Shown here one piece after another: positions 6,873-52,783 of a stretch of 64,000 nucleotides of DNA (position 1 is its first letter; the number at the start of each line of letters is the position of its first letter). This stretch comes from Somniosus microcephalus. Its lineage: Eukaryota. Made by a program: the position numbers and the translations under genes. Under the pieces are notes generated by a model. The model ran no database searches, had not been told where the DNA came from, and saw nothing but the letters and a program-made list of their open reading frames with translations. Location: positions 11,904,001 to 11,968,000 of the forward strand of contig CM126225.1 of assembly GCA_052327205.1 (NCBI GenBank), read 5' to 3'.

Positions 6873-9001
6873 TCAGTTTTTTCTTCTTCTGATTTGTGCC
6901 GTTATGAAAAGGATCTGTTGTAATCGGGCCCTAGTTTCAGCGCGGATTATTTCCCAGGCGCAGTCACTGAATCTCTGAGAAAGAGAAATATTCAGGAAAA
7001 TCCATTAGAAAATGAACAGGTTTGAATTGGGTAAACGAAAACGGTCAGTAATCTCAGTAAAATATCAATTTTCCCACCTTCTGTTTGAGAAACTTTCTCA
7101 GTTTCCTAAAGTATTTGTGAATTGAGGCGTTTCTCCTCGGCCTGGACTCTGAGCCTGGTTTCCTGACACATTCTTCCAGCTCCTCGAGCTGCCGATCCAG
7201 GAGAAGACGGAAGTTTTCCACCTTGTCCCGGGGCCATGTGACTGAGCCCAGGTTCATGCTGTAGATCTTGGTGAGGTGACGCAGTGTTTGATGGACAATC
7301 TGGATCCTGTCCTGGGTCTGTGCACAATACACACAAGGACGTTAGAGGGGACCTGTTCCTTTTTAGGTTTCGAGTAGTTATGGAAAAGGACAAGCATCAA
7401 TCACAAGTGAATATAGTCAACTGGTGTATTGGAATCTAAGATTTGCAGGTGAAACAGTAAATTTGCAATGGAAAGCCTTCAAAGAGGAAATCGTTTGGTG
7501 CAGTCTAGACACATCCGCACCAGGGGGAAAGGAAGGGCATGCAAAGCTATCTCTCCCCGGATCACTGAAGATGGAGATTTCAATGAAACAGCAAAAGGAG
7601 GCTTATGATAAACGTTAAGCTTATAATACAGTAGAGAACCAAGCTGAATGCAGAAGGTGCGAACTGAAAAAGGAAATGAGACGCAAAGAGAATGTATGAG
7701 AATAGATTAGTGGGTGATATTAAAGGGCTCCCAAATGTGTTTTAGAAGCATTAAAAAATTGTGGCTTTCCAAAGGGAATTGGTTAAGTACCTGAAAAAAA
7801 ATGGCATGGCTCCGGGGAAAGGGCGGGGAGTGGGACTGGCTGAAGTGCTCTTGCAGAGAGCCGGCACGGGCTCGACGGGCCGAATGGCCTCCTTATGTGC
7901 TGTAACCATTCTATGATTCTATGAAATAGTAAAAGGATATTCAAAGGATGGGTGGGATCATCTAGGAACCAGAATGGAAGATTAGAGGGGCTTCAATGAA
8001 TAGAGGGTGCGAGATGATTAGAGGGAGTTAGATAGTTAAAGGGAGTGAGATAATAGGTGAGATAGAGAGAGAGAGCTAGTTAGAGAGAGTGAGCTAGTTA
8101 CAGAGAGTGAGCTAGTTAGAGAGAGTGAGCTAGTTAGAGAGTGAGCTAGTTACAGAGAGTGAGCTAGTTGGAGAGAGTGAGCTAGTTACAGAGAGTGAGC
8201 TAGTTAGAGAGAGTGAGCTAGTTAGAGAGTGAGCTAGTTACAGAGAGTGAGCTAGTTACAGAGAGTGAGCTAGTTGGAGAGAGTGAGCTAGTTACAGAGA
8301 GTGAGCTAGTTAGAGAGAGTGAGCTAGTTAGAGAGTGAGCTAGTTACAGAGAGTGAGCTAGTTAGAGAGAGTGAGCTAGTTAGAGAGTGAGCTAGTTAGA
8401 GAGAGTGAGCTAGTTAGAGAGAGTGAGCTAGTTAGAGAGAGTGACATGGAGTGAGTGAATGGCTCTTCTGGCACTTTCACCTCAATGGGCGGCTAACACT
8501 GGATTTAAATTTCCTGATTAAAATTCTGATCCGTGTGTTTATCTTACTCATGCTTTCTATAAAACTTTTGCTTGAATAAAGTGAAATAAAATAGAGTTCA
8601 CTCACCTGTAATCCCTCTGAAAGTTTCACCAGATTCAAGGACTTGGTTTTCAGCGAGAGGCTCTCTCTTACACACTGTCGGGGAAAGGGGCCGCCCTGAG
8701 AGGAGAAGGCAATCAGTGTTACAATCAGTTCCCTTGAAATACTGGAGAATCGCTGCCTATTAATTGCGTAAAATTACAAACACATCAAACATTTTCTCCT
8801 GATATAACTTTCCACAACAAGCACAGAGTATATGGTTCGGATCCGGCTCTGAATGCAGGTTAAACTCACCATTTCATTCAGTTTGCTCAGAGTCTCTGTG
8901 TTGAGAACTTGCTGTAACTGCAGCTTCTCACAGCCCAGACTCAGGGTCCCGGGCAACAAGACCAACACAATCCAACATCTCCAAACACTCGCCAAAGCCA
9001 T
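6873..9001 (-). CDS. IFN: Type I interferon, 4 coding exons, 187 aa (copy 1; Ser56 variant)
   Basis: Exons: 9001-8870 (MALASVWRCWIVLVLLPGTLSLGCEKLQLQQVLNTETLSKLNEM), 8695-8606 (GGPFPRQCVRESLSLKTKSLNLVKLSEGLQ), 7317-7078 (TQDRIQIVHQTLRHL...ELEECVRK...HKYFRKLRKFLKQK), 6974-6873 (RFSDCAWEIIRAETRARLQQILFITAQIRRRKN*). All junctions are GT-AG and phase 0. Hydrophobic signal peptide; Cys at 24, 52, 124, 159; YFxKL...L...CAWExIRxE is the type I IFN signature. Confidence 0.93.
7410..7980 (+). mobile_element. Intron-2 CR1 ORF2 fragment with a nested CR1 3' tail (~7760-7923); present in each unit
   Basis: Translation QWKAFKEEI...KQQKEAYDKR. 3' tail ...gggccgaatggcctcct...tgtaaccATTCTATGATTCTATGA. Confidence 0.8.
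8063..8443. repeat. 16/18-bp intronic minisatellite (GAGAGTGAGCTAGTTA[C/G]A)n; copies at ~17961-18323 (one unit shorter), 27886, 37784, 47682, 57581
   Basis: Directly visible tandem repeat in IFN intron 2. Confidence 0.95.
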
Positions 9002-9184
9002 GCTGGACCGAGCCAAGGCAAAGCACCGATCTGAAGGATAAGAAACCGAGCGGATTCGAGTTCAGCTCAGAAAACGGTTCTTGTTCACTGAATGAAACTC
9101 TGGAAGTCGAAATGCAGCCGCTTGTGATCCCGGAGTGACCAGTTGTGTTGTCGAGTGTGGGTGTGCGGCTGGACACTGTGGGAG

Positions 9185-9370
9185 CTGTCACTTTAGGAGG
9201 AGGGACTGGCGATGTGGGCCATTACAATCCAAAAGTGAAAGCGGGCTGCAGGAGTGTTGGAAGAGCTGCAGGAGAGCAATAGTTTGTGCGGTTCCTTTCT
9301 GAGGTAAGGAATTCAAAAGCTGGAGATTCCTGAACCAGCGACTGGAAAATCCCCGAGAGAAGGTCCTAAC
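9185..9370 (-). promoter_or_regulatory. Proximal promoter of the intact IFN gene (exon 1A) with IRF-E and NF-kB sites (repeated in every unit)
   Basis: AAAAGTGAAA at 9231-9240; GGAAAATCCCC at 9344-9354 (minus strand GGGGATTTTCC, fits the kB consensus GGGRNNYYCC). Positions are homologous to the promoter B sites. Confidence 0.7.
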
Positions 9371-9445
9371 CATAGATTCATTGAAACAGAGAATGGTTAC
9401 AGCGCAGAAACAGGCCACTCGGCCCGTCGAGCCCGCGTCAGCTCA
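9371..9445 (-). mobile_element. Short CR1 3'-end fragment bounding promoter A; present in each unit
   Basis: catagattcattgaaacagagaatggttacagcgcagaaacaggccactcggcccgtcgagccc is the reverse complement of the tail type seen at 7865-7923. Confidence 0.75.
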
Positions 9446-10185
9446 ATGTCCCGTACATTTGTATCAATACTATCAATATGGATTTTGAAAATCTTTATTG
9501 GTTTCTCCAACATGTATGGACTCGCATCACGGGGGCACTAAGGGGGCAGACGGGTAGATTGATTGATGGTGGACTCTAATACCCCTTTCCCCTCTCAGCT
9601 CACATTCCCCCACTTTCCTCGGTGTCTCCTTGTCCTTCTTCCCTCAGTTTCTGATCCCCACCCTTCAGTTTATAATTTCCCCTCTCCACAGTGTCTGGTT
9701 CGCATTCTCCCCTCACACACTATTCGCGGATTCAGAGTCTGATCCCACCTCCCACCAGGGTCTGGTTCCCTCTCTCCCCTCAGTAGCTCATATGTTCTCC
9801 GCTCGCTGTTTGATTTCTGTCTACCCTCAAGATCTGATTCCGCACTTCCCTCACCATCACATTCTGCCTTTTCCCACAGTATTGCTTCCCCTCTGCCCTC
9901 AGACTCTCATTTCCCCTTTAATATCAGGGCACATCTCTCCTCAGGGGCTGATACCCCTCTCCCCTGTACCTGATTCCCCCTCTCTCCACAAGGTCTCATC
10001 TCCCCCTCCACTCAAAGTCTGATTCCCCCTCCACTCAAAGTCTGATTCCTCGACCCCTCACTCGTCGATATCTGGTTCCCTCTCTTTCCTCAGTTTCCAG
10101 GGTCTTGTTCTCATTCTCTCTCAGTCCTGATTCTCTCCTCAATATTAGAGCACCCCTTCTCCAAGGTGTCTGGTTTCAATTCTTC

Positions 10186-10678
10186 CCCAGGGTCTGATCC
10201 CACATCCCCCCAGGGACAGACCCCACCTGCCCCCAGGGTCTGACCCCACCAACCCCAGGGTTTGATCTCACCTCCCCCCAGGGTCTGATCCCACCTCCCC
10301 AGGGTCTAATCCCACCTCCCCAGGGCCTGATCCCACCTCCCCCAGGGTCTGATCCCACCAACCCCAGGGTCTGATCCCACCTCCCCAGGGCCTGATCCCA
10401 CCTCCCCTCAGGGTCTGATCCCACCAACCCCAGGGTCTGATCCCACCTCCCCCAAGGTCTGACCCCACATCCCCCCAGGGTCTGACCCCACATTCCCACA
10501 GGGTCTGACCCCACATCCCTCCAGGGTCTGATCCCACCTCCCCCCAGGGTCTGATCCCACCTGCCCCCAGGGTCTGATCCCACCTTCCCCCAGGGACAGA
10601 CCCCACCTCCCCCAGGGTCTGATCCCACCTCCCCCAGGGTCTGATCCCACCTCCCCCAGGGTCTGTGTCACCTCCCCT
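10186..10678. repeat. C-rich minisatellite, short allele
   Basis: 44 bp shorter than in unit 1. Confidence 0.95.
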
Positions 10679-11374
10679 CAATTTCATATTATCCTTCTCC
10701 CCAGTTTTTCATTTCCTCTCCCCCTCAGTGTCTGAATTCCCCTCTTCACTCAGTTTTATGATTCCTCTTGCCCCTCCGTGTCTCATTCCCCATCCCCTCA
10801 GTATCTGATTCCAGTTCGTCCTCAAATTTGATTCCCCCTCGCCTTAGGGTCTGAATCCCTCTCTCCCTGAGGCTTTGATTCCTTTCTCTCCCTCGGAGTC
10901 TGATACCCGCTCGCCTCAGTATAAGATTACCCCTTTCTTCAGTCTCTCATTTCCTTTCTCCGCTTAGAGCCAGATTCTCCTCTCGCTCAGAATAGTTTCT
11001 TTCGCCACGCACTGCCTGATCCCAGCTCTCCCCTCAGCATCAGATTCTTCTTCTCCCCTCAGTATTGATTTCCCACTCTAGTCAGCCCCTGATTCCGCCT
11101 ATCCCCTGTACCTGATTCTCTCTGTCCCATCAGGGATGAATTACCCCTCTAGGGTTCAGAGAACTTTTGCTGTTACACAGTCTCAGGGAATGATACCAAG
11201 AGTTACAGAAGAGAGTCACGCTAACAATTAATACCGTCAAATCAATACTGATCGACCAGTGACTATTAATTGCACAAGTAATATACAACTTCAAACTATT
11301 TCTCCAGACATGAGTTATCACAACAAACAGACCATGCGCATTTCGAACCGACTCGGGATGCAGGTTAAACTCAC

Positions 11375-11506
11375 CATTTCATTCAGTTTGCTGAGAGTCT
11401 CTGTGTTGAGAGCTTGCTGTAACTGCAGCCTCTCACAGCCCAGACTCAGGGTCCCGGGCAACAAGACCAAAACAATCCAACATCTCCAAACACTCGCCAA
11501 AGCCAT
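11375..11506 (-). pseudogene. Orphan IFN exon 1B (upstream of gene copy 1)
   Basis: Same 44-codon exon with intact ATG and phase-0 GTGAGT donor. Confidence 0.8.
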
Positions 11507-12428
11507 GCTGGACCGAGCCGGGGTAAAGCACCGATCTGAAAATTGGGAAACCGATCGGATCCGAGTTCAGCCCAGAAAACGGTTCTTGTTCACCGAATGA
11601 AACTCTGGAAGTGGAAATGCAGCCGCTTGTGATCCGGGAGCGACCGCCTGTGTTGCCGAGTGATGTGGGTGTGCGGCTCGACACTGTGGGAGCTCTCACT
11701 GCCATGGTGCCGGCTTTAAAGTGGGGCATTACATTCGAAAAGTGAAATCGGGCCGCAGGAGTTTTGGCACAGCCGCTGGAGACCAATGATTTGTGCGGTT
11801 TCTTTCTGGGGTAAGGAATGGAAAAGCTGGAGATTCCTGAACCAGCGAGTGGGAAATCTCCGACAGAAGATCCCAACCAGCGCCCGGTTCCAGCTCCGTG
11901 TTGTGTGGACTCGGATCACCGGGGCACTGAGCTGGTGTAGAGGGAGGCTCTGTATTGGGGGAGTGTGGACATTGCAGAGACCCCGCCTCACAGCCCAGGG
12001 GCACCGCTTCATGCCGACTGACTCCGCTCGGATTCACCTGTCGGAGACTCTGCTTCTTAAGGTTGTCGTTTCCGGGTTATTTTCTGGAGTCATTTTCAGA
12101 CATTGTTTTTAAAGAATATTTAATCCGTTTCGACTCTGAGTCCGAAGGGGATCCCGCTGCCTTTTCTTTCATCGTTTCTTTCTCGACCCTCTCCCGGGAA
12201 AGTGTCCGTGTCAGTTTCTCTGTGGAAATGAACCTTGTGTCAATTTCACCGAAAGCGAAAGTGTCTCAGGGAAAGTGACGAGTTTTGTCATTTCCGAAAG
12301 TGCGGAGTGATTGTAAACAGAACGGGTCAGACTGAGAGGGCTGAGGGGGAGCTGGGAAAAGGTTTGGGATCTCCGGGATAGCCCCGGTTACACAGGGAAT
12401 GTCGCAAAATCACTCTCAGCTGCAACTG

Positions 12429-16770: not shown

Positions 16771-18881
16771 TCAGTTTTTTCTTCTTCTGATTTGTGCCGT
16801 TATGAAAAGGATCTGTTGTAATCGGGCCCTAGTTTCAGCGCGGATTATTTCCCAGGCGCAGTCACTGAATCTCTGAGAAAGAGAAATATTCAGGAAAATC
16901 CATTAGAAAATGAACAGGTTTGAATTGGGTAAACGAAAACGGTCAGTAATCTCAGTAAAATATCAATTTTCCCACCTTCTGTTTGAGAAACTTTCTCAGT
17001 TTCCTAAAGTATTTGTGAATTGAGGCGTTTCTCCTCGGCCTGGACTCTGAGCCTGGTTTCCTGACACATTCTTCCAGCTCCTCGAGCTGCCGATCCAGGA
17101 GAAGACGGAAGTTTTCCACCTTGTCCCGGGGCCATGTGACTGAGCCCAGGTTCATGCTGTCGATCTTGGTGAGGTGACGCAGTGTTTGATGGACAATCTG
17201 GATCCTGTCCTGGGTCTGTGCACAATACACACAAGGACGTTAGAGGGGACCTGTTCCTTTTTAGGTTTCGAGTAGTTATGGAAAAGGACAAGCATCAATC
17301 ACAAGTGAATATAGTCAACTGGTGTATTGGAATCTAAGATTTGCAGGTGAAACAGTAAATTTGCAATGGAAAGCCTTCAAAGAGGAAATCGTTTGGTGCA
17401 GTCTAGACACATCCGCACCAGGGGGAAAGGAAGGGCATGCAAAGCTATCTCTCCCCGGATCACTGAAGATGGAGATTTCAATGAAACAGCAAAAGGAGGC
17501 TTATGATAAACGTTAAGCTTATAATACAGTAGAGAACCAAGCTGAATGCAGAAGGTGCGAACTGAAAAAGGAAATGAGACGCAAAGAGAATGTATGAGAA
17601 TAGATTAGTGGGTGATATTAAAGGGCTCCCAAATGTGTTTTAGAAGCATTAAAAAATTGTGGTTTTCCAAAGGGAATTGGTTAAGTACCTGAAAAAAAAT
17701 GGCATGGCTCCGGGGAAAGGGCGGGGAGTGGGACTGGCTGAAGTGCTCTTGCAGAGAGCCGGCACGGGCTCGACGGGCCGAATGGCCTCCTTATGTGCTG
17801 TAACCATTCTATGATTCTATGAAATAGTAAAAGGATATTCAAAGGATGGGTGGGATCATCTAGGAACCAGAATGGAAGATTAGAGGGGCTTCAATGAATA
17901 GAGGGTGCGAGATGATTAGAGGGAGTTAGATAGTTAAAGGGAGTGAGATAATAGGTGAGATAGAGAGAGAGAGCTAGTTAGAGAGAGTGAGCTAGTTACA
18001 GAGAGTGAGCTAGTTAGAGAGAGTGAGCTAGTTAGAGAGTGAGCTAGTTACAGAGAGTGAGCTAGTTGGAGAGAGTGAGCTAGTTACAGAGAGTGAGCTA
18101 GTTAGAGAGAGTGAGCTAGTTAGAGAGTGAGCTAGTTACAGAGAGTGAGCTAGTTACAGAGAGTGAGCTAGTTGGAGAGAGTGAGCTAGTTACAGAGAGT
18201 GAGCTAGTTAGAGAGAGTGAGCTAGTTAGAGAGTGAGCTAGTTACAGAGAGTGAGCTAGTTAGAGAGAGTGAGCTAGTTAGAGAGTGAGCTAGTTAGAGA
18301 GAGTGAGCTAGTTAGAGAGAGTGACATGGAGTGAGTGAATGGCTCTCCTGGCACTTTCACCTCAATGGGCGGCTAACACTGGATTTAAATTTCCTGATTA
18401 AAATTCTGATCCGCGTGTTTATCTTACTCATGCTTTCTATAAAACTTTTGCTTGAATAAAGTGAAATAAAATAGAGTTCACTCACCTGTAATCCCTCTGA
18501 AAGTTTCACCAGATTCAAGGACTTGGTTTTCAGCGAGAGCCTCTCTCTTACACACTGTCGGGGAAAGGGGCCGCCCTGAGAGGAGAAGGCAATCAGTGTT
18601 ACAATCAGTTCCCTTGAAATACTGGAGAATCGCTGCCTATTAATTGCGTAAAATTACAAACACATCAAACATTTTCTCCTGATATAACTTTCCACAACAA
18701 GCACAGAGTATATGGTTCGGATCCGGCTCTGAATGCAGGTTAAACTCACCATTTCATTCAGTTTGCTCAGAGTCTCTGTGTTGAGAACTTGCTGTAACTG
18801 CAGCTTCTCACAGCCCAGACTCAGGGTCCCGCGCAACAAGACCAACACAATCCAACATCTCCAAACACTCGCCAAAGCCAT
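16771..18881 (-). CDS. IFN: Type I interferon, 4 exons, 187 aa (copy 2; P17R and Y93D)
   Basis: Exons 18881-18750, 18575-18486, 17215-16976, 16872-16771. Splice sites intact; substitutions at 18832 and 17161. Confidence 0.9.
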
Positions 18882-46491: not shown

Positions 46492-48620
46492 TCAGTTTTT
46501 TCTTCTTCTGATTTGTGCCGTTATGAAAAGGATCTGTTGTAATCGGGCCCTAGTTTCAGCGCGGATTATTTCCCAGGCGCAGTCACTGAATCTCTGAGAA
46601 AGAGAAATATTCAGGAAAATCCATTAGAAAATGAACAGGTTTGAATTGGGTAAACGAAAACGGTCAGTAATCTCAGTAAAATATCAATTTTCCCACCTTC
46701 TGTTTGAGAAACTTTCTCAGTTTCCTAAAGTATTTGTGAATTGAGGCGTTTCTCCTCGGCCTGGACTCTGAGCCTGGTTTCCTGACACATTCTTCCAGCT
46801 CCTCGAGCTGCCGATCCAGGAGAAGACGGAAGTTTTCCACCTTGTCCCGGGGCCATGTGACTGAGCCCAGGTTCATGCTGTAGATCTTGGTGAGGTGACG
46901 CAGTGTTTGATGGACAATCTGGATCCTGTCCTGGGTCTGTGCACAATACACACAAGGACGTTAGAGGGGACCTGTTCCTTTTTAGGTTTCGAGTAGTTAT
47001 GGAAAAGGACAAGCATCAATCACAAGTGAATATAGTCAACTGGTGTATTGGAATCTAAGATTTGCAGGTGAAACAGTAAATTTGCAATGGAAAGCCTTCA
47101 AAGAGGAAATCGTTTGGTGCAGTCTAGACACATCCGCACCAGGGGGAAAGGAAGGGCATGCAAAGCTATCTCTCCCCGGATCACTGAAGATGGAGATTTC
47201 AATGAAACAGCAAAAGGAGGCTTATGATAAACGTTAAGCTTATAATACAGTAGAGAACCAAGCTGAATGCAGAAGGTGCGAACTGAAAAAGGAAATGAGA
47301 CGCAAAGAGAATGTATGAGAATAGATTAGTGGGTGATATTAAAGGGCTCCCAAATGTGTTTTAGAAGCATTAAAAAATTGTGGCTTTCCAAAGGGAATTG
47401 GTTAAGTACCTGAAAAAAAATGGCATGGCTCCGGGGAAAGGGCGGGGAGTGGGACTGGCTGAAGTGCTCTTGCAGAGAGCCGGCACGGGCTCGACGGGCC
47501 GAATGGCCTCCTTATGTGCTGTAACCATTCTATGATTCTATGAAATAGTAAAAGGATATTCAAAGGATGGGTGGGATCATCTAGGAACCAGAATGGAAGA
47601 TTAGAGGGGCTTCAATGAATAGAGGGTGCGAGATGATTAGAGGGAGTTAGATAGTTAAAGGGAGTGAGATAATAGGTGAGATAGAGAGAGAGAGCTAGTT
47701 AGAGAGAGTGAGCTAGTTACAGAGAGTGAGCTAGTTAGAGAGAGTGAGCTAGTTAGAGAGTGAGCTAGTTACAGAGAGTGAGCTAGTTGGAGAGAGTGAG
47801 CTAGTTACAGAGAGTGAGCTAGTTAGAGAGAGTGAGCTAGTTAGAGAGTGAGCTAGTTACAGAGAGTGAGCTAGTTACAGAGAGTGAGCTAGTTGGAGAG
47901 AGTGAGCTAGTTACAGAGAGTGAGCTAGTTAGAGAGAGTGAGCTAGTTAGAGAGTGAGCTAGTTACAGAGAGTGAGCTAGTTAGAGAGAGTGAGCTAGTT
48001 AGAGAGTGAGCTAGTTAGAGAGAGTGAGCTAGTTAGAGAGAGTGAGCTAGTTAGAGAGAGTGACATGGAGTGAGTGAATGGCTCTTCTGGCACTTTCACC
48101 TCAATGGGCGGCTAACACTGGATTTAAATTTCCTGATTAAAATTCTGATCCGTGTGTTTATCTTACTCATGCTTTCTATAAAACTTTTGCTTGAATAAAG
48201 TGAAATAAAATAGAGTTCACTCACCTGTAATCCCTCTGAAAGTTTCACCAGATTCAAGGACTTGGTTTTCAGCGAGAGCCTCTCTCTTACACACTGTCGG
48301 GGAAAGGGGCTGCCCTGAGAGGAGAAGGCAATCAGTGTTACAATCAGTTCCCTTGAAATACTGGAGAATCGCTGCCTATTAATTGCGTAAAATTACAAAC
48401 ACATCAAACATTTTCTCCTGATATAACTTTCCACAACAAGCACAGAGTATATGGTTCGGATCCGGCTCTGAATGCAGGTTAAACTCACCATTTCATTCAG
48501 TTTGCTCAGAGTCTCTGTGTTGAGAACTTGCTGTAACTGCAGCTTCTCACAGCCCAGACTCAGGGTCCCGGGCAACAAGACCAACACAATCCAACATCTC
48601 CAAACACTCGCCAAAGCCAT
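46492..48620 (-). CDS. IFN: Type I interferon, 4 exons, 187 aa (copy 5; G46S)
   Basis: Exons 48620-48489, 48314-48225, 46936-46697, 46593-46492. C>T at 48311 gives GGC>AGC in exon 2. Confidence 0.92.
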
Positions 48621-51125: not shown

Positions 51126-51881
51126 GCTGGACCGAGCCGGGGTAAAGCACCGATCTGAAAATTGGGAAACCGATCGGATCCGAGTTCAGCCCAGAAAACG
51201 GTTCTTGTTCACCGAATGAAACTCTGGAAGTGGAAATGCAGCCGCTTGTGATCCGGGAGCGACCGCCTGTGTTGCCGAGTGATGTGGGTGTGCGGCTCGA
51301 CACTGTGGGAGCTCTCACTGCCATGGTGCCGGCTTTAAAGTGGGGCATTACATTCGAAAAGTGAAATCGGGCCGCAGGAGTTTTGGCACAGCCGCTGGAG
51401 ACCAATGATTTGTGCGGTTTCTTTCTGGGGTAAGGAATGGAAAAGCTGGAGATTCCTGAACCAGCGAGTGGGAAATCTCCGACAGAAGATCCCAACCAGC
51501 GCCCGGTTCCAGCTCCGTGTTGTGTGGACTCGGATCACCGGGGCACTGAGCTGGTGTAGAGGGAGGCTCTGTATTGGGGGAGTGTGGACATTGCAGAGAC
51601 CCCGCCTCACAGCCCAGGGGCACCGCTTCATGCCGACTGACTCCGCTCGGATTCACCTGTCGGAGACTCTGCTTCTTAAGGTTGTCGTTTCCGGGTTATT
51701 TTCTGGAGTCATTTTCAGACATTGTTTTTAAAGAATATTTAATCCGTTTCGACTCTGAGTCCGAAGGGGATCCCGCTGCCTTTTCTTTCATCGTTTCTTT
51801 CTCGACCCTCTCCCGGGAAAGTGTCCGTGTCAGTTTCTCTGTGGAAATGAACCTTGTGTCAATTTCACCGAAAGCGAAAGT

Positions 51882-52783
51882 AGAGAATTACAAATATTCA
51901 CAACCATCTGAGTGAAGAAATCCCTCCTCATCTCAGTCTTAAATGGCTTACCCCTTATCCTGAGACTATGTCCCCTAGTGACAGACACTCCAGCCAGGGG
52001 AAACATCCTCTCAGCCTCTACCCTTTCAAACCCCTTCAAAATCTTGTAAGTTTCAATGAGATCACCACTGATTTTTCTAAACTACAGAGAGTATAGGCCA
52101 ATTGTAAACAATCTCTCATCATAGGACAGATCTCTAATCCAAGGAATCAATCTAGTGAACCTTCGTTGCACTGCCCGAAGGTAAGTGTATCCTTGCTTAG
52201 AATTGGACACCAAAACTGTGCACAGTACTCCAGGTGTGGTCTCACCAAGGCACTGTACATTTGTAGCAAGACTTCCTTACTCTTGTACACCAACCCCCTT
52301 GCAATAAAGGCCAACATGCCAATTGCTTGCTGTACCTGCATGCGAGCTTTCTGTGTTTCTTCCCCAAGGACACCCAAATCTCTCTGAACACCAACACTTG
52401 AAAGTTTCTCACCATTTAAAAAATATTCTGTTTTTCTATTCTTTATACCAAAGTGAATAACCTCACATTTCCGTACATTATACTCTGTCTGCCACCTTAC
52501 TTCCCACTCACTTAGTCTATCTATATCCCTTTGAAGATTCTTTGTGTTCTCCTCACAGCTTACTGTCCCACCTAGCTTTGTATCATCAGCAAACTTGGAT
52601 GCATTACACTTGGTCCCTTCATCTGGGTCATTAATATAGATTGTAAATAGCTGAGGCCCCAACACTGACACTTGCGGCACACCAATATTTACAGCCTGCC
52701 AACCTGAAAAAGATTTGTTTATCCCTACTCTCTGTTTTCTGTCCGTTAACCAATCCTCTATCCATGCTACTATATTACCCCAG
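51882..52783 (-). mobile_element. Chimeric CR1 LINE fragment (unit 6), extended toward the ORF2 C-terminus by a different CR1 sequence
   Basis: 52322-52783 matches the other units. 51882-52321 is a diverged CR1 (GMLAFIARGLVYKSKEVLLQMYSALVRPHLEYC...; TRGHSLRIRGKPFKTEMRRDFFTQMVVNICNSL). Confidence 0.9.

Follow-up and report, generated by a model that had tools for sequence, protein, structure and literature searches.

The window analysed here, 64,000 nucleotides of Somniosus microcephalus (C24:11904001-11968000 of a 6.4-Gb genome), is filled by tandem 9.9-kb units about 99.5% identical to each other, in which part of a dead interferon (IFN) gene stands in front of an intact one. The dead gene is represented by its promoter and first coding exon, here called exon 1B; the intact gene lies 2.5 kb downstream and begins with its own first exon, 1A. 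This stump anatomy is real. We lean, tentatively and with somewhat less than even confidence, towards a converted stump with unproductive read-through. Exon 1B belongs to what is left at the 5’ end of an IFN paralogue that broke long ago, a stump made up of promoter, ATG exon and dead exon 2, and its intact look was likely preserved by gene conversion rather than by selection. Transcripts begun at 1B would likely splice into a predicted acceptor 29 nt before the 1A ATG, and the resulting frameshifted RNA would then be removed by nonsense-mediated decay (NMD). Secreted IFN would come from the 1A-started gene, and the cassette would be a passenger amplified by unequal crossing-over.

The stump, the spacer and the intact gene

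Exon mapping over 164 kb around the window located 11 four-exon IFN genes, with an isolated copy of the ATG exon before each. One cassette is laid out as follows, in window coordinates.

11375..11506, minus strand: exon 1B, an ATG exon of 132 nt (44 codons) with a phase-0 GTGAGT donor and a hydrophobic N-terminus
11110..11374, minus strand: the stump gene’s intron 1 and its decayed exon 2, which has lost the acceptor and contains stops
9560..11109, minus strand: spacer rich in purines (sense strand 41% G), where donor-like sites are many and acceptor-like ones few
10185-10677, minus strand: 23-bp tandem array inside the spacer, with related repeats on C35
8870..9001, minus strand: coding part of exon 1A, likewise 132 nt, which opens with an ATG, encodes a hydrophobic N-terminus and ends at a phase-0 GTGAGT donor
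8606..8695, minus strand: exon 2, from the exon map
7078..7317, minus strand: exon 3, the fused exon of the four-exon form, with a PF00143 match above cut-off
6873..6974, minus strand: coding part of exon 4 up to the stop, from the exon map

Exons 1B and 1A differ at 4 of 132 nt, which amount to K26R, V32A and two silent changes. The single-nucleotide polymorphisms (SNPs) private to 1B are those at codon 12 (GTT) and codon 32 (GCT); K26R and the change at codon 38 are common to the M genes, eight close relatives in a second, larger IFN cluster at C24 43.2-43.4 Mb that also holds the distant classes D, E, F and H. Comparisons with this main cluster cover 200 kb, less 43.385-43.405 Mb, and in them the 1A genes are class A and the 1B stumps class B. 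The open reading frame (ORF) and donor of 1B are intact in 11 of 11 units; the signal peptides of 1B and 1A were assessed by eye. At window position 11412, all the depth of contig run X1 carries Val at codon 32 and run X3 has Ala as well; V32A may be polymorphic, or a contig may have been filtered out.

Behind 1B, at about 11200-11110, lies an exon-2 remnant that lacks the acceptor AG and contains stops. Compared with shuffled sequences it gives z values of 3.1-4.1 for four A/M-type exon 2s and 1.4-2.1 for five distant ones. Because this remnant follows it, 1B is the stump of a whole gene and not a lone duplicated exon. The pseudogene at C24:43332163 was considered as the closest relative of the stump intron and rejected, being E-type. 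In front of the terminal gene (C24 11891550-11895700), the spacer joins an array-type stump to a second, older intron-1/exon-2 remnant. The two exon-2 remnants share the lost acceptor and a TGA, yet are 72% identical over 134 nt, and this low identity indicates that the death of exon 2 and the order of stump, spacer and gene are old. The spacers of the array gene and the terminal gene are 76-78% identical in their best pieces. The roughly tenfold amplification, by comparison, appears recent. Since the units are about 99.5% identical, their repetition reflects one amplification event, and the repeats are not independent evidence.

Much of the initial annotation agrees with this map. It had placed 1B, its minus strand, its ATG and its phase-0 GTGAGT donor as the exon map does, had recognised the decayed exon 2 behind it, and had correctly worked out that a 1B-2-3-4 mRNA would be in frame, its 187-aa product differing only by K26R and V32A. 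Its statement that the arrangement recurs in every unit stands for 1B itself and overreaches beyond it, as the recurrence is a single amplification event, one unit has lost the upstream half of a cluster of interferon regulatory factor (IRF) sites, and the distal promoter region of the top unit has decayed.

The intact gene has an ORF of 187 aa in four exons. Its introns are in phase 0, with exon lengths of 132/90/240 nt, and PF00143 (Pfam Interferon) is found over its cut-off, at 40-45 bits, in exon 3 of 11 of 11 array genes. The mature region holds four Cys, one from each exon: codon 24 of 1A, codon 8 of exon 2, codon 50 of exon 3 and codon 5 of exon 4. Four exons and three introns, with intron 3 lost, make it the cartilaginous-fish four-exon IFN1 form by the criterion of Secombes and Zou 2017 (PMC5332411), which describes a four-exon form of cartilaginous-fish type I IFN with a fused third exon. 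The genes here resemble those in their four coding exons, fused exon 3, four mature-region Cys, tandem clusters and PF00143 match; unlike them, they stand in an array of 11 near-identical units, each with a stump upstream of its gene, and this array lies 31 Mb from the main cluster. Private coding changes occur among the array units: P17R and an exon-3 Y-to-D change in the gene with its ATG at 18881, and in exon 2 a G-to-S change (ATG at 48620) and an R-to-S change (ATG at 9001). Another PF00143 match lies on a different contig, at C35:66991288-66991416.

Between the stump and the gene, a scan of the spacer for the canonical G-quadruplex pattern gave 0 matches, and the ratio of observed to expected CpG (CpG o/e) is 0.23. 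Repeats related to the purine-rich spacer lie on C35 at 43.47 and 63.99 Mb. In run X1 one contig, of depth 10.9, connects 9598 directly with 10715; that sample may therefore contain a unit from whose spacer about 1.1 kb is deleted.

The predicted acceptor before exon 1A

Two acceptor-like sites bear on the fate of a transcript from 1B.

9002..9045, minus strand: 3’ splice site predicted as strong, with its AG at 9032-9031 and exon start at 9030, and the 29 nt leading up to the 1A ATG
9494..9537, minus strand: weak acceptor-like site (exon start 9537, score 6.4) and AATAAA at 9499-9494

The initial annotation took exon 2 to be the next intact acceptor for 1B. The predicted site at 9030 competes with it: from the 1B donor to exon 2 there are 248 AGs, of which this one scores 12.0 and the next best 8.5, compared with 12.2 for exon 2. 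These values come from an approximate matrix based on textbook frequencies, which gives the true exon-3 acceptor only 3.6, and because the matrix is this crude the splice outcome remains a prediction. By the same matrix, acceptors scoring at least 12 occur at 0.044 per kb (180 kb of the main cluster), true paralogue acceptors score 5.4-12.2 (n=7), and the acceptor before 1A is the strongest in the family. A donor scoring 9.8 lies 161 nt downstream of 9030, giving an exon of ordinary internal size. A transcript from 1B would thus reach a well-defined predicted 161-nt exon before exon 2. If these 161 nt are included, the frame shifts and translation ends after 73 codons, at a stop lying 74 nt short of the junction between 1A and exon 2. 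Under the 50-nt rule, a stop that far ahead of a junction makes an RNA an NMD target, and the frameshifted 1B-1A RNA would therefore be one. Upstream of this, the site at 9537 and the AATAAA next to it are a possible premature end for 1B transcripts.

The acceptor appears to be a family trait. In 16 of 20 paralogue starts, the corresponding site is one of the top four acceptors found over the 1.1 kb upstream. Of the remaining four, H has a site by eye at -19, while the pseudogene and two F starts have none, although the F1 and F2 starts, counted as misses among the 20, are mis-anchored (no ATG at the coordinate used). The similarity of A, B and M to class E starts at about -35, exactly at the acceptor-like site. 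In E1, E2 and H a CAG/GTAAGA donor at -118 to -124 pairs with the acceptor (TTTCAG) to delimit an intron of about 95-100 nt, and this pair likely represents a real intron within the 5’ untranslated region (UTR) of these distant paralogues. The predicted 5’ UTR intron precedes the ATGs at 43352002, 43370561 and 43415807 (E and H classes, C24 43.34-43.42 Mb). The proximal 5’ UTR donor is gone in classes A, B, M and D. We predict that the family’s ATG exon was ancestrally an internal exon, behind a 5’ UTR intron and a teleost-like promoter of two modules. The accessible part of PMC5332411 makes no mention, for type I genes, of an acceptor ahead of the ATG; here it is predicted.

Promoter modules and sequence exchange

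The promoters of 1B and 1A contain the following features.

12191..12319, minus strand: distal IRF-site cluster of the 1B module, with a perfect IRF element/interferon-stimulated response element (IRF-E/ISRE) at 12251-12262; present in M genes, absent before 1A
12038..12122, minus strand: TATA-like boxes (12122-12106) and a predicted short non-coding candidate exon with a donor-like CAG/GTGAAT, last exon base 12038
11507..11880, minus strand: 1B proximal promoter, with a one-mismatch kB-like site (11861-11852), an IRF-like site (11747-11738), a TATA-like box (11720-11714) and an acceptor-like AG (exon start 11535)
9031..9372, minus strand: truncated 1A promoter, with a consensus kB site (9354-9344), an IRF-like site (9240-9231) and its TATA region replaced

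The distal cluster of 1B comprises four IRF half-sites, including the perfect IRF-E, and is identical to an M gene at 133 of 140 positions. The perfect IRF-E has 7 matches in the window, one per unit, where 0.20 would be expected. The donor-like site at 12038 scores 8.8; the homologous site scores 8.4 in 7 of 8 M genes and is absent in the top-unit copy, whose distal region has decayed. In one unit (window ~51880-52320) a different piece resembling a long interspersed nuclear element (LINE) replaces the region upstream of the IRF-E, with the loss of two IRF half-sites. The 1B module aligns to the M promoters out to -922, except for a deletion of about 170 nt that takes a TATAAA; it lacks either consensus kB site of the M genes, and its TATA-like box, at -214, varies in 5 of 11 units. 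The 1A promoter can be aligned with the M genes only as far as -371. The M genes themselves (C24 43.22-43.31 Mb) have a distal module with a kB site at -1060, an IRF cluster, a TATA-like box and a donor-like site at about -703, and a proximal module with a kB site at -349, an IRF site and a TATA box at -215; the two modules are reminiscent of salmon IFNa.

The 1B and 1A promoters are thus unequal, and the pattern looks like complementary loss, since 1B keeps the IRF cluster and TATA-like boxes without a consensus kB site and 1A keeps a kB site without cluster or TATA. They are complementary remnants rather than equal units, which weakens the initial proposal of two independently regulated promoters. 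The proposal that 1B has its own IRF and kB sites fares well for IRF, with the distal cluster, and poorly for kB: a strict consensus scan of 1.2 kb before each exon gave 0 for the window’s 1B and 1 for 1A, leaving 1B the one-mismatch site.

Paralogues of this family have visibly exchanged exon-sized pieces. At C24:43332163 a pseudogene combines E-type exons 2 and 3 with an exon 1 that is A/M-like (92%, with two stops), and in D-type genes exons 1-2 stand at 52-57% aa identity and exons 3-4 at 90-96%. The F class is also chimeric, with divergent exons 1-2 on near-identical exons 3-4; all these chimeras lie at C24 43.33-43.38 Mb. Silent sites of exon 1 are under-diverged in A, B and M, at about one private change per lineage versus 13-17% in intron 1, which selection on the protein does not explain by itself. 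Because such conversion is visible, an intact 1B is no proof of use. Concerted evolution and conversion have been discussed for IFN1 in PMC6640115. Excess similarity between 1A and 1B was considered as the explanation of 1B and rejected, as the private changes in exon 1 are star-like (B 2, A 2, M 3). Across nine units, variable sites number 0 of 132 nt in 1B and 1 of 132 in 1A, too sparse for a selection test. The terminal gene has lost 2 nt close to where exon 1A ends and another 10 nt upstream of the acceptor-like site. Its exons 2-4 are open with intact splice sites; they are separated from those of the array gene by 18 replacement and 4 silent changes, a ratio that gives no sign of purifying selection.

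Weighing the explanations

Our tentative choice of a converted stump with unproductive read-through draws on the stump anatomy, the older stump remnant, the acceptor-like site with the frameshift that follows from it, and the patchwork exchange among paralogues. The erosion of the 1B promoter points the same way: kB sites lost, the TATAAA block of about 170 nt deleted, the TATA-like box varying in 5 of 11 units and the IRF cluster half replaced in one. Several results nevertheless weigh against it. Private changes in 1B number 2 in 132 exon nt versus 17 in 98 intron nt (p 1e-5), and in the core promoter 3 of 112 nt are private in 1B versus 23 in 1A (p 3e-5); with 23 private changes there, 1A cannot be the conversion donor of the 1B core promoter. 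Compared with an M gene, 7 of 140 nt are changed in the IRF cluster and 49 of 315 in its flanks (p 0.001), a contrast that is not significant in the decayed top-unit copy (p 0.13). A genome search for a donor closer than the M genes (85-88%, 31 Mb away) found none, and CpG o/e in the 1B promoter is 0.77-0.92, like M promoters, versus 0.23 in the spacer. The 1B module thus seems better kept than dead sequence should be, which favours function, now or until recently. On the splicing side, the scores come from a crude matrix that rates the exon-3 acceptor so low, the acceptor at 9030 could be vestigial because A, B and M are without the proximal 5’ UTR donor, and any mRNA joining 1B to exon 2 would become enriched as the frameshifted RNA decays. 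RNA runs X4 and X5, which carry the same species label (about 24% and 31% of each read), gave no joints and zero depth on all three of 1B, 1A and exon 2. As IFN genes are in general not expressed unless induced, this zero depth decides nothing.

It is possible, though on the unlikely side, that complementary loss has left the 1B module as an IRF enhancer or upstream promoter of the 1A gene, acting by looping over 2.5-3.3 kb or through the non-coding exon ending at 12038, spliced to 9030 to give normal 1A protein. The reach of the 1B module to -922 with its perfect IRF-E, beside a 1A promoter whose homology stops at -371, fits this idea, as do the contrast in core-promoter changes, the donor-like site that follows the distal TATA-like boxes in 1B and most M genes, the rank of the acceptor before 1A by the crude matrix, and a stump-spacer-gene order that, with spacers at 76-78%, predates the split of array and terminal genes. 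Teleost IFNa, with its two-region promoters and long and short transcripts, is a further parallel (PMC5127012, PMC3828176). It is harder to reconcile with the decayed, donorless distal region of the top unit, with a 1A promoter that may work alone through its consensus kB and IRF-like sites, and with two upstream ATGs that the candidate exon contains if transcription does not start below 12093; part of the contrast between cluster and flanks could also come from selection acting solely on the M side. Stated in full and with the same reserve, this would be an IFN gene split by complementary decay, in which the dead paralogue gives the IRF enhancer, TATA and leader exon and its neighbour the coding body, the 161-nt ATG exons are used singly (joint inclusion leading to NMD), and the cassette was amplified about tenfold with varying copy number. 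We consider it more doubtful still that 1B is a working alternative first exon, joined to exon 2 by skipping 1A and encoding a secreted K26R/V32A IFN, as the initial annotation proposed. The reading frame, the intact donor, the 11 intact copies with few private changes and the precedent of PEP1, in which both exon-1 copies splice to one exon 2 (PMC3527215), speak for that proposal, and such an mRNA could rescue the terminal gene, where 1A has lost 2 nt and exons 2-4 are open. The competing acceptor, unequal promoters and the ability of conversion to explain an intact 1B all tell against it: the mRNA must skip the well-defined predicted 161-nt exon and pass several weaker spacer acceptors and an AATAAA, the replacement-rich exons 2-4 of the terminal gene do not look protected, and the protein would gain two conservative residues. 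Least probable by far is that the array is partly an assembly over-expansion, with the cassette in fewer copies than drawn. In run X1 the top-unit allele at 11986 has a depth of about 11 and unit-specific pieces have about 40-45, a hint of some four units in that sample, contig depth not being a copy number. The units, however, carry private SNPs, and one has a different LINE junction; stump and spacer pieces also occur in two independent-looking contig runs, X1 and X3. Over-expansion would in any case touch copy number only, not the adjacency of 1B and 1A. Judged by depth ratios in X1 and X3, the number of units may be lower than in the assembly, or different from it, and the array may vary in copy number. 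The stump piece in X3, a run labelled organism B and the sole hint of the cassette in another organism, carries the six alleles of the terminal unit.

The architecture of a stump plus a gene is already known from Arabis alpina. There, according to Albani et al. 2012 (PMC3527215), promoter and exon 1 are duplicated, and a single exon 2 receives splices from the duplicate exon 1 as well as from the original (PEP1a/PEP1b). The shark cassette likewise has a partial copy (promoter, exon 1, part of intron 1) with an in-frame donor upstream of a full copy, and the mechanism would be the same if 1B splices to exon 2. Splicing at PEP1 was shown by cDNA, whereas that of 1B to exon 2 is a proposal; 1A, unlike its counterpart, has a strong predicted acceptor, and the stump derives from a gene with a decayed exon 2. 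A PEP1-type arrangement would call for no competing acceptor, a criterion of our own rather than one from PMC3527215, and a predicted one is present at 9030 (score 12.0). In teleost IFNa/ifnphi1 the promoter has two regions, and the long transcripts lack the signal peptide (PMC5127012 and PMC3828176). Distal and proximal promoter modules (motifs only here) and possible 5’ splicing from an upstream exon are shared; unlike in the long teleost forms, the acceptor predicted here precedes the ATG by 29 nt and would keep the signal peptide.

In tandem exon duplication, NMD can enforce mutually exclusive use of the copies. The two 161-nt copies described here, with acceptor- and donor-like ends and a frame shift on joint inclusion, resemble that situation; they differ in arising by gene duplication and decay rather than within a gene, and their use is only predicted. 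Among titles and the openings of abstracts, with subscription journals mostly outside the scope, we found no description of an orphan IFN first exon or of this array.

If the stump is dead, the locus is a case of ordinary birth-and-death evolution with conversion in an IFN cluster. If instead it drives or boosts the intact gene, a pseudogene promoter has been recycled in an antiviral family and then co-amplified, and calling 1B junk, or 1A the first exon, would misplace the promoter. The predicted acceptor and 5’ UTR intron of the four-exon IFN genes bear on whether the 5’ splicing of fish IFN predates teleosts.

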